Shown here: in pieces, positions 44,853-61,929 of the stretch
How the letters are laid out: the number at the start of each line of letters is the position of its first letter
Position numbering within the stretch: position 1 is the stretch's first letter
Assembly (NCBI RefSeq): GCF_030013205.1
Contig: NZ_CP122648.1
Length of the DNA: 64,000 nt
Reading direction: 5' to 3' (one strand)
Source of the DNA: Escherichia coli
GTDB lineage: Bacteria; Pseudomonadota; Gammaproteobacteria; Enterobacterales; Enterobacteriaceae
The notes under the pieces: model-generated
What the model was told of the DNA's origin: nothing
Database searches by the model: none
What the model saw: only the letters and a program-made list of their open reading frames with translations
Program-made: the position numbers and the translations under genes

Positions 44853-45713
44853 TTATTCTCGCGAAATACCATCCAACGTAGACAACACTTCCTCAGTAAG
44901 ATGCAATTTTTCAGCAGCCATATTCTCCCGTAAATGCGCAACAGAAGACGTCCCTGGGATCAGCAAAATATTCGGTGAACGTTGTAACAGCCACGCCAGC
45001 GCCACCTGCATTGGTGTTGCACCCAGGCTCGCAGCAACATCGGAAAGCGTGGAAGATTGCAGCGGCGTAAAGCCCCCGAGCGGAAAGAACGGCACGTAGG
45101 CAATGCCGTCACGAGCCAAAGCTTCAATCATTGCGTCATCAGCACGATGAGCAATGTTGTATTCGTTCTGCACACAGACGATTTCGGCAATCTTGCGCGC
45201 CTCTGCAACCTGCGTCGGTGTGACGTTGCTCAGGCCAATATGTTTTACCAGGCCTTGTTGTTGCATCTCTGCCAGCACGGTCAGGCTGGCTTCAATCGAT
45301 CCTTCCGCCGGGCCATGACCATCCCCCATCATGACGCGCAGGTTAACCACATCCAGTACGTCCAGGCCGAGATTACGTAGATTATCGTGTACCGCTTTTT
45401 GCAGCTCTGCCGGAGAAAATGCGGGCAACCAGGAAGCATCCTCACCACGCCGTGCACCAATTTTAGTGACAATTGTCAGCTCGTCAGAGTAAGGATGTAG
45501 CGCTTCGCGGATAATCTGATTGGTGACGTGCGGACCATAAAAGTCGCTGGTATCAATATGATTGACGCCCAATGCCAGCGCCTCGCGCAGCACGGTTATA
45601 GCAACGTGGCGATCTCTTGGGGGGCCAAAAACCCCAGGGCCTGCCAGTTGCATCGCGCCATAACCAAGACGGTTAACGGATTTTGTACCGAGAGTAAATG
45701 TGTTGCTGCTCAT
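44853..45713 (-). CDS. ydbC: Aldo-keto reductase (NAD(P)-dependent oxidoreductase)
   Basis: 286 aa; AKR-family fold. Confidence 0.85.
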   Translation of the reverse strand: MSSNTFTLGTKSVNRLGYGAMQLAGPGVFGPPRDRHVAITVLREALALGVNHIDTSDFYGPHVTNQIIREALHPYSDELTIVTKIGARRGEDASWLPAFSPAELQKAVHDNLRNLGLDVLDVVNLRVMMGDGHGPAEGSIEASLTVLAEMQQQGLVKHIGLSNVTPTQVAEARKIAEIVCVQNEYNIAHRADDAMIEALARDGIAYVPFFPLGGFTPLQSSTLSDVAASLGATPMQVALAWLLQRSPNILLIPGTSSVAHLRENMAAEKLHLTEEVLSTLDGISRE

Positions 45714-45867
45714 CGCACCCTGCCCTGTAATAAAACGGATTAAGAAAAATCAGTATAGAAACGAAAAGAGATAAATAATGCGAAGGCGTAAACAAGATTA
45801 CTGGATGAGTTGCTCTATTGTCCTTGAAGACACCAAAACAAAACGCCTAAAGCATCGCATCCGGCAA

Positions 45868-45903
45868 TAAAAAACCGCAACCTGTATCAGCATTGCGGTT
45901 TAG
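45868..45903 (-). terminator. Rho-independent terminator downstream of paaY
   Basis: Hairpin accgcaa-(12 nt)-ttgcggt followed on the minus strand by TTTTTTATT. Confidence 0.6.
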
Positions 45904-45943
45904 GTATCACATGCTAAAAATTAGAACGTCCAGCATCAGGACG

Positions 45944-46534
45944 TTACTGTTTCGGACGCAGATCCTCATCAAATACCAGACGCTGCCTGCCAGGTTCAAC
46001 TTCCCGCAATGGCTCGACTTGATGCAACGTCTGCTTACAGCGTGTCACCAGCACCTGATACTCATGCGTGCCCTGCTTTTTCCATGCCAGCTCCTGCTCA
46101 CTAAGTTCACGAATCGCTTTCGCCGGGCTGCCGACAATCAGGTAATTAGCAGGCATTTCTGCTTTGGCTTTCACAAATGCGGATGCACCCACAATACTGT
46201 TCTCACCAATCACCGCACCGTCCATCACTACCGCATTCATTCCCACTAATGCATTGCGGCGGATAATGCAGCCGTGAAGGATAGCGCTATGACCAATATG
46301 CCCGTCTTCTTCCACGACAGTATCCTGATCGGGAAAACCGTGCATAACGCAATTATCCTGAATGTTCGCGCCATCTTTCACCACGATACGACCAAAATCG
46401 CCACGCAGGCTGGCATTTGGCCCAACGTAAACGCCCTTGCCGAGAATAACATCGCCGATCAATACCGCTGTCGGATGGACAAAACTCTCTTCTGGTACAA
46501 CCGGAGTCAGACCGTCTATCTGGTAAATTGGCAT
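45944..46534 (-). CDS. paaY: Hexapeptide-repeat thioesterase/acyltransferase PaaY
   Basis: 196 aa; gamma-carbonic-anhydrase-like hexapeptide repeats. Confidence 0.9.
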
Positions 46535-47466
46535 AACGCCTCCTGTTCAATGTTCAAACCGCCAAAACGTTGAAAATACAGGCTTCCCGGCGCAGGCAGT
46601 TCACCGACCGAGGTTTCACCTTTTTCACTAACGAACGCTAAAGCAGCAGGCGCTACGCGCTGATAAATGTTGATACACAACTGACGCGCCGTATGCCCTG
46701 CCCAGTGTGCCGGAAGCAACTCCTCCGGCAACATTGGGTCTTTAAGGACGACACGGCGATAAAAATGGATCAGTAAAAGCTGAATATGAAATGCACGCTC
46801 CGGGGTTAATTCGTCTGCCGCCTCTTTTAACAGCGGCACCAGCGGGCGGAATGACTGAATAAAGGTTTCGTACATGGCATTTTGTTCAGTTAAATGCCAG
46901 CACTCTTCTACTCTGGCACGCAGTGCTGCGCGAGAAAGCGCCAGTGGTATTTGCGCTTCAAAACAAATCACGTTATCCGCCACACCCGCTTCATGCAAAA
47001 GTGTCTGTACATCGGCCAGTTTTTGCGACGGCGATGCCATCAGGCTGGGTGCCAGTGCGCCAAAACCTTGCCAGATCAACTGCTTTTTGACATCAGCCAG
47101 CGTTGATTTATCTAAACCTTCCGAGAGCAACAGGAGCCATTTACCATCCCATGCAGGTTGCTCTGCGCGATAAATTTTACTTTCTGCCCGTCGCGTCAGG
47201 CGCAAGCCTTTATCACTGAGGCTATAGAAACTGCGTCGCCCGATGCGGGAAACATCCAGCCAGCCTTCTTTATTAAGACGAAACAAAGCGGTGCGCACGA
47301 AACGCTCACCAAATCCCAGCCCTTCCAGCAAAGCAGCCAGACTACCCAGCCAGATTTCACCACCACGATGGGAAAGCGAATCACCATACAGAGAGGAGAT
47401 CAAAGATGTGCCACTGACCGGAACAGCGTTTACAGCATGTTGGATAAAAGTATCAAGTTTACTCAT
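46516..47466 (-). CDS. paaX: Phenylacetyl-CoA-responsive repressor of the paa operons
   Basis: 316 aa; overlaps paaY by 19 bp. Confidence 0.9.
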
Positions 47467-47566
47467 TCGATTCAGTCTGTTGTTATTGTTGTAATTTATG
47501 AATCATAGCACAGGTCGTATCGACTTCTGGCCCTGGCGCTTTACCTCACCAGGGCCAGACGACACG

Positions 47567-56148: not shown

Positions 56149-57078
56149 TTATGCGACCTTACAGGCATGTTGTTTTTGTGCATGGGCCAGCGCAGCTTCC
56201 CGTACCCAGGTACCTTCTTCCCAGGCTTTACATTTGGCGTCGAGCCGCTCCTGATTACAAATTCCGCGACCGTTTATCACTTCGTTAAACTCCTGCCAGT
56301 CGATCTCACCAAAGCGGTAGTGACCGCTTTCAGTATCAAAATGCAGATCCGGGTCAGGAACGGTCATACCGAGCATTTCAACCTGTGGAACGGTGTTATC
56401 CACGAAACGCTGGCGGAGTTCGTCGTTGGTGAAACGTTTGATTTTCCAGGCGAGACTTCTGGCGCTGTTTGGCGAGTTATCATCGTTTGGCCCGAACATC
56501 ATTAAGGCTGGCCACCAGAAACGGTTAATGGCGTCTTGCAACATCTGCTTTTGAGCTTCGCTGCCCTGCGCCAGTGCCATGCAGGCTTCAAACCCCTGAC
56601 GCTGGTGAAAACTCTCTTCTTTGCAGATTTTCACCATTGCTCTGGCATACGGGCCATAAGAAGTGCGGCATAACGCCACCTGATTGACGATCGCTGCGCC
56701 ATCCACCAGCCAGCCGATAACGCCGATATCACCCCAACTCAATGTCGGATAATTAAAGATGGAGGAATATTTCATCCGTCCGTCGAGCATTTTTTGGTAG
56801 ATGTCTTCTCTGGCACAGCCCAGTGTTTCGGCGGCGCTATAGAGATACAGACCATGACCGGCTTCATCCTGCACTTTGGCTAACAGAATGGCTTTACGCC
56901 GCAAGGTTGGTGCGCGAGTGATCCAGTTACCTTCAGGCAACATACCCACAATCTCGGAGTGCGCATGCTGCCCAATCTGGCGGATCAATGTCTTTCGGTA
57001 AGCATCGGGCATCCAGTCCTGCGGCTCGATAGCCGTTTCCTGGGCTATCCGTTGCTCAAAGCGTTCTTCTTGGGTCAC
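56149..57078 (-). CDS. paaA: Phenylacetyl-CoA 1,2-epoxidase catalytic subunit PaaA (di-iron)
   Basis: 309 aa; first gene of the paaABC... operon, apparently GTG-initiated. Confidence 0.9.
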
Positions 57079-57091
57079 GTCATCACCTTTA

Positions 57092-57130
57092 CGATTCCAA
57101 TTTTCGTGAATTAATTAAAAACACGAATCA
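57092..57130. promoter_or_regulatory. Candidate PaaX operator at the paaA promoter
   Basis: cGATTC-N27-GAATCA palindromic half-sites about 15-50 bp upstream of the paaA start, matching the recalled PaaX TGATTC-N27-GAATCA arrangement. Confidence 0.45.
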
Positions 57131-57308
57131 CATTGTTTTATGAAAGTTACACAATAGTTAACTAAAATCACAAATTTTGTATGTTTGAACTGTGACGGAT
57201 TTCGCACCCTATTTTTATAACTCATTATTTATCAGTGCATTAATGTTTTTAGTGGTTGATATACAGATCGCACAGTTAACATTTCGTTAAAATACTCCTT
57301 GCTTTTTA

Positions 57309-57348
57309 TGATTCGTGATTTAACTATTAGAAACAGAAATGTGAAACA
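57309..57348. promoter_or_regulatory. Candidate PaaX operator at the paaZ promoter
   Basis: TGATTCGTGAT box with an imperfect distal half-site GAAaCA about 28 bp away, just upstream of the paaZ RBS. Confidence 0.4.
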
Positions 57349-57362
57349 TCTGGAGAGTAGCG

Positions 57363-59408
57363 ATGCAGCAGTTAGCCAGTTTCTTATCCGGTACCTGGCA
57401 GTCTGGCCGGGGCCGTAGCCGTTTGATTCACCACGCTATTAGCGGCGAGGCGTTATGGGAAGTGACCAGTGAAGGTCTTGATATGGCGGCTGCCCGCCAG
57501 TTTTCCATTGAAAAAGGTGCCCCCGCCCTCCGCGCGATGACCTTTATCGAACGTGCGGCGATGCTTAAAGCGGTCGCTAAACATCTGCTGAGTGAAAAAG
57601 AGCGTTTCTATGCTCTTTCTGCACAAACAGGCGCAACGCGGGCAGATAGTTGGGTTGATATTGAAGGCGGTATTGGGACGTTATTTACTTACGCCAGCCT
57701 CGGTGGCCGGGAGCTGCCTGACGATACGCTGTGGCCGGAAGATGAATTGATCCCCTTATCGAAAGAAGGTGGATTTGCCGCGCGCCATGTACTGACCTCG
57801 AAGTCAGGTGTGGCGGTGCATATTAACGCCTTTAACTTCCCCTGCTGGGGAATGCTGGAAAAGCTGGCACCAACGTGGCTGGGCGGAATGCCAGCCATCA
57901 TAAAACCAGCTACCGCGACGGCCCAACTGACTCAGGCGATGGTGAAATCAATTGTCGATAGTGGTCTTGTTCCCGAAGGCGCAATTGGTCTGATCTGCGG
58001 TAGTGCGGGCGACCTTTTGGATCATCTGGACAGCCAGGATGTGGTGACTTTCACGGGGTCCGCGACGACCGGACAGATGCTGCGAGTTCAGCCAAATATC
58101 GTTGCCAAATCTATCCCCTTCACTATGGAAGCTGATTCCCTGAACTGCTGCGTACTGGGCGAAGATGTCACCCCGGATCAACCGGAGTTTGCGCTGTTTA
58201 TTCGTGAAGTTGTGCGTGAGATGACCACAAAAGCCGGGCAAAAATGTACGGCAATCCGGCGGATTATTGTGCCGCAAGTATTGGTTAATGCTGTCAGTGA
58301 CGCTCTGGTTGCGCGATTACAGAAAGTCGTGGTCGGTGATCCTGCGCAGGAAGGCGTGAAAATGGGCGCACTGGTAAATGCTGAGCAGCGTGCCGATGTG
58401 CAGGAAAAAGTGAACACATTGCTGGCTGCAGGATGCGAGATTCGCCTCGGTGGTCAGGCGGATTTATCTGCTGCGGGTGCCTTCTTCCCGCCAACCTTAT
58501 TGTACTGTCCGCAGCCGGATGAAACACCGGCGGTACATGCAACAGAAGCCTTTGGCCCTGTCGCAACGCTAATGCCAGCACAAAACCAGCAACATGCTCT
58601 GCAACTGGCTTGTGCAGGCGGCGGTAGCCTTGCGGGAACGCTGGTGACGGCTGATCCGCAAATTGCGCGTCAGTTTATTGCCGACGCGGCACGTACGCAT
58701 GGGCGAATTCAGATCCTCAATGAAGAATCGGCAAAAGAATCCACCGGGCATGGCTCCCCACTGCCACAACTGGTACATGGTGGGCCTGGTCGCGCAGGAG
58801 GCGGTGAAGAATTAGGTGGTTTACGGGCGGTGAAACATTACATGCAGCGAACCGCTGTTCAGGGTAGTCCGACGATGCTTGCCGCTATCAGTAAACAGTG
58901 GGTGCGTGGTGCGAAAGTCGAAGAAGATCGTATTCATCCGTTCCGCAAATATTTTGAGGAGCTGCAACCAGGCGACAGCCTGTTGACTCCCCGCCGCACA
59001 ATGACAGAGGCCGATATTGTGAACTTTGCTTGCCTCAGCGGCGATCATTTCTATGCACATATGGATAAGATTGCTGCTGCCGAATCTATTTTTGGTGAGC
59101 GTGTAGTACATGGGTATTTTGTGCTTTCTGCGGCTGCGGGTCTGTTTGTCGATGCCGGAGTTGGTCCGGTCATTGCTAACTACGGGCTGGAAAACTTGCG
59201 TTTTATCGAACCCGTAAAACCAGGCGATACCATCCAGGTGCGTCTCACCTGTAAGCGCAAGACGCTGAAAAAACAGCGTAGCGCAGAAGAAAAACCAACA
59301 GGTGTAGTGGAATGGTCGGTAGAGGTATTCAATCAGCATCAAACCCCGGTGGCGCTGTATTCAATTCTGACGCTGGTGGCCAGGCAGCACGGTGATTTTG
59401 TCGATTAA
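57363..59408 (+). CDS. paaZ: Bifunctional oxepin-CoA hydrolase / 3-oxo-5,6-dehydrosuberyl-CoA semialdehyde dehydrogenase
   Basis: 681 aa; N-terminal aldehyde dehydrogenase domain and C-terminal MaoC-like hotdog hydratase domain. Confidence 0.9.
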
Positions 59409-59655: not shown

Positions 59656-61929
59656 ATGGGAAGCCCCTCTCTGTATTCTGCCCGTAAAACAGCCCTGGCG
59701 TTGGCAGTCGCCTTAAGTTTCGCCTGGCAAGCGCCGGTATTTGCCCACGGTGGTGAAGCGCATATGGTGCCAATGGATAAAACGCTTAAAGAATTTGGTG
59801 CCGATGTGCAGTGGGACGACTACGCCCAGATCTTTACCCTGATTAAAGATGGCGCGTACGTGAAAGTGAAGCCTGGTGCGCAAACAGCAATTGTTAATGG
59901 TCAGCCTCTGGCACTGCAAGTCCCGGTAGTGATGAAAGACAATAAAGCCTGGGTTTCTGACACCTTTATTAACGATGTTTTCCAGTCCGGGCTGGATCAA
60001 ACCTTTCAGGTAGAAAAGCGCCCTCACCCACTTAATGCGCTAACTGCGGACGAAATTAAACAGGCCGTTGAAATTGTTAAAGCTTCCGCGGACTTCAAAC
60101 CCAATACCCGTTTTACTGAGATCTCCCTGCTACCGCCAGATAAAGAGGCTGTCTGGGCGTTTGCGCTGGAAAACAAACCGGTTGACCAGCCGCGCAAAGC
60201 CGACGTCATTATGCTCGACGGCAAACATATCATCGAAGCGGTAGTGGATCTGCAAAACAACAAATTGCTCTCCTGGCAACCCATTAAAGACGCCCACGGA
60301 ATGGTGTTGCTGGATGATTTCGCCAGTGTGCAGAACATTATTAACAACAGTGAAGAATTTGCCGCTGCCGTGAAGAAGCGCGGTATTACTGATACGAAGA
60401 AAGTGATTACCACGCCGCTGACCGTAGGTTATTTCGATGGTAAAGATGGCCTGAAACAAGATGCCCGGTTGCTCAAAGTCATCAGCTATCTTGATGTCGG
60501 TGATGGCAACTACTGGGCACATCCCATCGAAAACCTGGTGGCGGTCGTTGATTTAGAACAGAAAAAAATCGTTAAGATTGAAGAAGGTCCGGTAGTTCCG
60601 GTGCCAATGACCGCACGCCCATTTGATGGCCGTGACCGTGTTGCTCCGGCAGTTAAGCCTATGCAAATCATCGAGCCTGAAGGTAAAAATTACACCATTA
60701 CTGGCGATATGATTCACTGGCGTAACTGGGATTTTCACCTCAGCATGAACTCTCGCGTCGGGCCGATGATCTCCACCGTGACTTATAACGACAATGGCAC
60801 CAAACGCAAAGTCATGTACGAAGGTTCTCTCGGCGGCATGATTGTGCCTTACGGTGATCCTGATATTGGCTGGTACTTTAAAGCGTATCTGGACTCTGGT
60901 GACTACGGTATGGGCACGCTAACCTCACCAATTGCTCGTGGTAAAGATGCACCGTCTAACGCAGTGCTCCTTAATGAAACCATCGCCGACTACACTGGCG
61001 TGCCGATTGAGATCCCTCGCGCTATCGCGGTATTTGAACGTTATGCCGGGCCGGAGTATAAGCATCAGGAAATGGGCCAGCCCAACGTCAGTACCGAACG
61101 CCGGGAGTTAGTGGTGCGCTGGATCAGTACAGTGGGTAACTATGACTACATTTTTGACTGGATCTTCCATGAAAACGGCACTATTGGCATTGATGCCGGT
61201 GCTACGGGCATCGAAGCGGTGAAAGGTGTTAAAGCGAAAACCATGCACGATGAGACGGCGAAAGATGACACGCGCTACGGCACGCTTATCGATCACAATA
61301 TCGTGGGTACTACACACCAGCATATTTATAATTTCCGCCTCGATCTGGATGTAGATGGCGAGAATAACAGCCTGGTGGCGATGGACCCGGTGGTAAAACC
61401 GAATACTGCCGGTGGCCCACGCACCAGTACCATGCAAGTTAATCAGTACAACATCGGCAATGAACAGGATGCCGCGCAGAAGTTTGATCCGGGCACGATT
61501 CGTCTGTTGAGTAACCTGAACAAAGAGAATCGCATGGGCAATCCGGTTTCCTATCAAATTATTCCTTATGCAGGTGGTACTCACCCGGTAGCAAAAGGTG
61601 CCCAGTTCGCGCCGGACGAGTGGATCTATCATCGTTTAAGCTTTATGGACAAGCAGCTCTGGGTAACGCGTTATCATCCTGGCGAGCGTTTCCCGGAAGG
61701 CAAATATCCGAACCGTTCTACTCATGACACCGGTCTTGGACAATACAGTAAAGATAACGAGTCGCTGGACAACACCGACGCCGTTGTCTGGATGACCACT
61801 GGCACCACACATGTGGCCCGTGCCGAAGAGTGGCCGATTATGCCGACCGAATGGGTACATACCCTGCTGAAACCATGGAACTTCTTTGACGAAACGCCAA
61901 CGCTTGGGGCGATAAAGAAAGATAAGTGA
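59656..61929 (+). CDS. tynA: Periplasmic copper/topaquinone primary amine oxidase
   Basis: 757 aa from internal Met (MGSPSLYSARK...); signal peptide; TPQ consensus region (NYDY) and Cu-binding His. Confidence 0.9.
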   Translation: MGSPSLYSARKTALALAVALSFAWQAPVFAHGGEAHMVPMDKTLKEFGADVQWDDYAQIFTLIKDGAYVKVKPGAQTAIVNGQPLALQVPVVMKDNKAWVSDTFINDVFQSGLDQTFQVEKRPHPLNALTADEIKQAVEIVKASADFKPNTRFTEISLLPPDKEAVWAFALENKPVDQPRKADVIMLDGKHIIEAVVDLQNNKLLSWQPIKDAHGMVLLDDFASVQNIINNSEEFAAAVKKRGITDTKKVITTPLTVGYFDGKDGLKQDARLLKVISYLDVGDGNYWAHPIENLVAVVDLEQKKIVKIEEGPVVPVPMTARPFDGRDRVAPAVKPMQIIEPEGKNYTITGDMIHWRNWDFHLSMNSRVGPMISTVTYNDNGTKRKVMYEGSLGGMIVPYGDPDIGWYFKAYLDSGDYGMGTLTSPIARGKDAPSNAVLLNETIADYTGVPIEIPRAIAVFERYAGPEYKHQEMGQPNVSTERRELVVRWISTVGNYDYIFDWIFHENGTIGIDAGATGIEAVKGVKAKTMHDETAKDDTRYGTLIDHNIVGTTHQHIYNFRLDLDVDGENNSLVAMDPVVKPNTAGGPRTSTMQVNQYNIGNEQDAAQKFDPGTIRLLSNLNKENRMGNPVSYQIIPYAGGTHPVAKGAQFAPDEWIYHRLSFMDKQLWVTRYHPGERFPEGKYPNRSTHDTGLGQYSKDNESLDNTDAVVWMTTGTTHVARAEEWPIMPTEWVHTLLKPWNFFDETPTLGAIKKDK

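Follow-up and report, generated by a model that had tools for sequence, protein, structure and literature searches.

What controls the divergent paaA and paaZ genes in this Escherichia coli DNA, and are the spaced inverted hexamers between them operators of the repressor PaaX? In the window, the whole 64-kb stretch that was analysed, the two genes are separated by a spacer with a G+C content of 30.3%, compared to 50.1% window-wide, and the paaA/paaZ spacer of K-12 is 284 bp long as well. A sequence-only reading of this DNA had described an AT-rich intergenic region of 284 bp, and its coordinates, length and composition were all borne out. A 901-bp stretch around the spacer shows 100% identity to strain K_EC180, in which the RefSeq annotation places paaA and paaZ at the matching stretch. 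The corresponding segment (window positions 56800-57700) is present in 3,132 of 5,426 complete E. coli genomes (58%), and the spacer allele of the window is about 97% identical to that of most genomes carrying it. The allele itself is rare, as identity of at least 99% was found in 17 of the 3,132 genomes, the others falling between 95 and 99%. At the paaY end of the cluster, pdxI (ydbC; 44853-45713) and paaY lie only about 230 bp apart (45714-45943); in K-12, this interval is occupied by ynbG together with ydbA, an autotransporter pseudogene disrupted by an IS element, and ydbA is wholly missing from the lineage of the window. The features discussed below are collected in Table 1.

Table 1. 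Genes, promoters and regulatory sites of the paa region; positions are those of the window, lower-case letters mark departures from the consensus and empty cells indicate that no value applies.
Feature	Position	Strand	Sequence or layout	Remarks
paaA/paaZ divergent control region	57079-57362			284 bp, non-coding; promoters Pa (leftward) and Pz (rightward)
paaA	56149-57078	-		GTG start; ORF and Pfam assignment
paaZ	57363-59408	+		ORF and Pfam assignment
paaB to paaK, paaX, paaY		-		remaining paa cluster, beyond paaA
paaX	46516-47466	-		repressor gene, intact; 316 aa
paaY	45944-46534	-		
Predicted PaaX operator at Pa	57092-57130	-	TGATTC (57130-57125), N27, GAATCg (57097-57092)	
15-bp PaaX motif, Pa copy	57134-57120	-	AATGTGATTCGTGTT	fits WWTRTGATTCGYGWT
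Predicted PaaX operator at Pz	57309-57348	+	TGATTC (57309-57314), N28, GAAaCA (57343-57348)	
15-bp PaaX motif, Pz copy	57305-57319	+	TTTATGATTCGTGAT	fits WWTRTGATTCGYGWT
Predicted PaaX operator at Px	47468-47505	-	TGATTC (47505-47500), N26, GAATCg (47473-47468)	
Pa transcription start	57137-57143, near 57140 (+/-3 nt)	-		derived from ArcA site at -46 to +11
Pz transcription start	57335	+	A	28 nt before paaZ ATG; derived from ArcA site at -62 to -42
ArcA-P multi-repeat site at Pa	57133-57186			published -46 to +11; overlaps Pa core promoter (PMC3798270)
ArcA two-repeat site upstream of Pz	57273-57293		cAGTTAACATTTCGTTAAAAt	published -62 to -42 (PMC3798270)
Candidate CRP-like site	57191-57206		TGTGAcggattTCGCA	TGCGA-N6-TCACA in paaA sense

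The consensus of the E. coli PaaX site is TGATTC(N27)GAATCA, as given in a 2022 review citing Kim et al. 2004, and both Pa and Pz are repressed by PaaX in E. coli (PMC9493321). The spacer contains two sites of this type, one on the paaA side and one on the paaZ side, each matching the published consensus at 11 of the 12 half-site positions. The sequence-only reading had pointed to the same two places. Its paaA-side pair, cGATTC (57092-57097) and GAATCA (57125-57130) with 27 bases in between on the + strand, was recovered in full, and so was its paaZ-side site, TGATTCGTGAT at 57309-57319 on the + strand, together with the degenerate distal half-site, which proved to be GAAACA (57343-57348) at N28 with five of six matches. 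The 3' limit of the Pa operator is 13 nt short of the paaA GTG. A third site, which that reading missed, precedes paaX at the promoter Px and likewise has 11 of 12 half-site matches; it ends 1 nt from the paaX ATG, and its strong half-site overlaps TGcTATGAT, an extended -10-like element. The sites are thus located directly upstream of paaA, paaZ and paaX, and the same window encodes an intact PaaX with all three Pfam domains (PaaX, PaaX_M and PaaX_C), which is identical to K-12 PaaX at 314 of 316 residues (99%) and matches PDB entry 8A39 with E = 7e-206.

Ferrandez et al. are said to have found in 2000 that a 15-bp motif around the strong half-site, WWTRTGATTCGYGWT, is required at both Pa and Pz, and the window holds a fitting copy at each promoter. 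The Pz copy in K-12 is TTTATGATTCGCGAT, with a C in place of the T of the window, both of which fit the Y position; the corresponding cores, TGATTCGCGAT in K-12 and TGATTCGTGAT in the window, therefore differ as alleles within the consensus. At Pa, one spacer base differs (T here, C in K-12) and the half-sites are identical. The operators of E. coli W and K-12 share with those of the window the species, the genes, the 284-bp spacer, the half-sites, N27 at Pa and both 15-bp motifs, and the comparison with the K-12 Pa and Pz operators (Ferrandez, Garcia & Diaz 2000) leaves allelic differences only. The known operators do not map elsewhere in the region, the agreement with them being with the consensus of the review and with the 15-bp motif attributed to Ferrandez et al. 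Taken together, the consensus fit, the half-sites identical to those of K-12, the intact paaX and the conservation described below support the earlier claim of PaaX control from both promoters, and we put at roughly 95% the probability that the Pa and Pz sites serve as PaaX operators of the divergent E. coli paa promoters.

A spacer with 30% G+C, in which short AT-rich words recur, could be expected to produce half-site pairs by chance, and an exact GATTC-N25-GAATC inside tynA (61497-61531) shows that random matches do occur in the window. To score the sites, we used a weight matrix of two half-sites whose training set consisted of 57 unique sites (Pa and Px) from other genera, with E. coli and Pz sites excluded, and scanned both strands of the 64-kb window at spacer lengths of 26-28, corresponding to 383,682 scored positions. 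The three best scores belong to exactly the three paa promoters, Px with 24.9 bits, Pa with 23.6 bits and Pz with 17.0 bits, and the next distinct locus reaches 9.4 bits; the scan that the sequence-only reading had proposed as a check thus places its two sites second (Pa) and third (Pz). When the spacer was shuffled 2,000 times with its dinucleotide composition preserved, scores peaked at 14.5 bits, no shuffled sequence attained 17.0 bits and none contained an exact GATTC-N26-28-GAATC. Across the window, GATTC-N25-29-GAATC was found three times, with 0.42 expected, and two of the three matches are directly upstream of paaA and paaX. We set the tynA pair aside as a chance match, given its spacing outside 26-28, its position in coding sequence and its absence from the matrix ranking; a lone left half-site in tynA, gatATGATTCact (60710-60722), was set aside in the same way, as its partner is missing, it lies in coding sequence and the matrix did not rank it. 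The shuffles and the ranking, together with half-sites that stay invariant in 43 loci of many genera while their spacers differ, make coincidence a vanishingly improbable explanation of the operator pairs.

The comparative set was obtained with a PaaA scan using one genome per species, which returned 80 loci. In all 43 Enterobacterales loci examined, among them Citrobacter, Enterobacter, Klebsiella, Kluyvera, Cedecea, Buttiauxella, Serratia, Providencia and Xenorhabdus, the 130 nt preceding paaA contain a single TGATTC-N26-28-GAATC, and in 17 loci TGATTC-N26-GAATCA stands directly before paaX. In an alignment of the whole spacer (19 sequences), the hexamers are invariant and the intervening 27-28 bases are essentially unconserved, a combination that characterises a bipartite protein-binding site. 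The strong half-site at Pz is invariant in the Enterobacteriaceae, as are the TTG 5-7 bases upstream of it and the AACTAT downstream, and the latter two elements are conserved across genera. The distal position in this family reads GAAACA, GTAACA or GAACCA, always at N28, and several other genera have an alternative AAATCA at N21 near Pz; judged from the sequences, the register of the distal Pz half-site is probably the least certain element of all the sites. Providencia, Xenorhabdus and Serratia have TGATAC at Pz and TGATTC at Pa.

To place the operators relative to the promoters, we made use of the ArcA site sequences of Park et al. 2013, which are numbered from mapped start sites (PMC3798270). 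With the resulting Pz start, the Pz operator would span about -26 to +14, and the strong half-site would fall between the likely -35 element, TTGCTT (57299-57304), and the likely -10 element, AACTAT (57322-57327). The Pa start is about 60-65 nt before the paaA GTG, and TAACTT (57149-57144) is the likely -10 element; TGTAACTT, in the area of the Pa start and -10, is invariant or nearly so in the spacer alignment. On the same ArcA-site coordinates, the Pa operator would lie wholly inside the transcribed paaA leader, at about +11 to +49. A consensus sigma-70 scan returned a single promoter-like site (57140-57168, + strand), no more than the shuffles gave and matching neither published start; that the scan was uninformative can be attributed to Pa and Pz being weak, activator-dependent promoters.

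Several other regulators act on the same spacer, and we asked if one of them could be the main reader of the hexamers. The regulators reported for both promoters are PaaX, CRP and IHF (PMC3798270). ArcA-P produces a footprint of 57 bp at Pa, and under anaerobic conditions, even with phenylacetate, paaA-lacZ gives 23 Miller units in the wild type and 404 in an arcA deletion (PMC3798270). The ArcA site at Pa differs from the K-12 sequence by one substitution and that at Pz, TAGTTAACATTTCGTTAAAAG in K-12, by two. The presence of the ArcA-P site explains the invariant GTTAAC/TGTAAC columns at Pa, and the TTAA/TTAAC columns at the Pz ArcA site are invariant in the spacer alignment too. These blocks (GTTAAC/TGTAAC and GTTAAC...GTTAA) are kept across the Enterobacteriaceae, suggesting that the family probably inherited the anaerobic shut-off of paa from its common ancestor. 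CRP activates paaA, and its site is overlapped by the ArcA repeats (PMC3798270). The 16-mer at 57191-57206 would be this CRP site, with its centre about 58-62 bp upstream of the Pa start and with G161, G163 and TCACA invariant among the 19 aligned spacers. SlyA shifts the paa spacer in EMSA (PMC5797941). The sequence-only reading, right on the Pa and Pz operators, had left out the CRP-like site, the ArcA-P sites and the binding of SlyA as well as the Px operator; with these added, the remaining conserved blocks of the spacer are all accounted for by known regulators.

That ArcA-P, CRP, IHF or SlyA, rather than PaaX, might be the principal protein recognising the hexamers is suggested by the 57-bp ArcA-P footprint at Pa, by the second ArcA site near Pz and by a candidate SlyA site, TTAAATCGCGAA, 239 bp upstream of paaA, which overlaps the Pz half-site. 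However, the two ArcA sites and the CRP-like site form separate conserved blocks with different motifs, and the TGATTC...GAATC architecture recurs before paaX itself and matches the PaaX consensus, which renders this assignment highly unlikely.

The position of the Pa operator downstream of the presumed start, ending close to the GTG, is also what one would expect if the inverted repeat acted as an RNA hairpin in the paaA leader, controlling stability or translation, instead of as a protein site; in E. coli, an inner repeat, TTCGTG-N13-CACGAA, adds to this impression. The calculated folding of the leader argues against such a function, with -9.3 kcal/mol corresponding to z = +0.55 and 137 of 200 shuffles folding equally well or better. 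RNAalifold on 21 leaders gave only 7 outer pairs, a covariation term of -0.21 and no compensatory changes, and a search of the leader against Rfam returned nothing at the gathering score, the sole match being a yeast snoRNA with E = 0.7. An apparent covariation of the inner repeat was rejected as RNA structure, as one arm is the left half-site in every case, many genera do not have the repeat and RNAalifold did not recover it. Moreover, the bases of the hexamers are conserved as sequence, beyond mere complementarity, and at Pz and Px these half-sites recur at places in the transcripts that do not correspond to that at Pa. We therefore regard an RNA element as very improbable, in favor of operators bound by PaaX.

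The inner repeat of the E. coli Pa spacer (57098-57124) has counterparts elsewhere. An inner copy of the right half-site, able to pair with the left half-site and its flank at N9-N15, is found in the Pa spacer of about half of the genera examined, e.g. as TGATTCACA-N11-TGTGAATCA followed by the outer GAATCA, or as TCACCAT-N10-ATGGTGA, amounting to a third half-site 5-7 bp ahead of the outer GAATCA; Leclercia, most Lelliottia and Providencia do not have it. In the Moraxellaceae (Acinetobacter and Psychrobacter), all 16 loci have GATAC-N27/28-GTATC instead of GATTC...GAATC, about 82-98 nt upstream of paaA and with a -35-like word, TTGAC or TTGAT, inside the spacer. Their PaaX is about 45% identical and consistently altered in the winged-helix region, RFVRT being replaced by RA/SVRT and GRRS by GRTS, which hints at a specificity change of one base that co-evolved in half-site and repressor. 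A tripartite operator at Pa and, separately, such a co-evolved switch in the Moraxellaceae constitute a possible reading, albeit one that we consider rather doubtful; if true, the tripartite operator would imply alternative registers of PaaX binding or a second dimer.

E. coli strains differ in their Px operator. Its promoter-distal half is GAATCG in the window and in strain E3, compared to GAAGCG in K-12 and BS74R-D, and strain H2 carries an extra AAC that extends the Px spacer to N29. The 91-bp Px stretch has at least 99% identity to the window in only 18 of 3,165 genomes. The set-point of paaX autorepression may change with these differences.

These features suggest how the circuit would operate; the sequences, their significance and conservation and the intact paaX are observed here, whereas binding, inducer and competition with polymerase come from the literature. 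PaaX, a GntR-type repressor with a winged helix-turn-helix whose gene lies some 10 kb from the spacer in the window, would read the two inverted hexamers, TGATTC and GAATCA. The half-site centres are 32-34 bp apart, approximately three helical turns, and hence both would be presented on one face of the DNA. The reported mode of action of PaaX is competition with RNA polymerase at Px and Pz and a different one at Pa (PMC9493321). At Pz, the operator overlaps the polymerase binding site, implying that PaaX would exclude the polymerase, while the Pa operator, being entirely downstream of the start, points to repression after, or independent of, polymerase binding. The Px operator, placed over the -10 element, would serve autorepression of paaXY, which has been ascribed to PaaX sterically blocking RNA polymerase (Fernandez, Diaz & Garcia 2014, as cited in PMC9493321); the site in the window has the same architecture as the known paaXY operator, with N26 and the overlap with a -10-like element, consistent with steric exclusion, and differs from that of K-12 in the distal half noted above. 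Phenylacetyl-CoA, and not phenylacetate, prevents the binding of PaaX at Pa, Pz and Px (PMC9493321). PaaK would convert phenylacetate to phenylacetyl-CoA, which would free the DNA of PaaX and induce all three units, and CRP, ArcA-P, IHF and SlyA on the same spacer would add control by carbon source and oxygen. A related logic is known from the TetR-type PaaR operators of Burkholderia, Thermus and Corynebacterium, which serve the same pathway, respond to phenylacetyl-CoA as inducer and repress at paaA and paaZ. PaaR, however, belongs to an unrelated family and uses a compact 15-bp palindrome, ACCGACCGGTCGGTT, between -35 and -10, unlike the PaaX hexamers three turns apart.

The feature is an ordinary one, a pair of PaaX operators of the E. 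coli paa genes that had been characterised before, accompanied by the Px operator, and its importance extends little beyond correct annotation. The E. coli lineage represented here keeps a complete PaaX circuit, consisting of three operators and an intact repressor, that gates phenylacetate catabolism, and the footprint of the PaaX box in the Enterobacterales, with its spacing of N26-28, could be turned into a position weight matrix to predict regulons.
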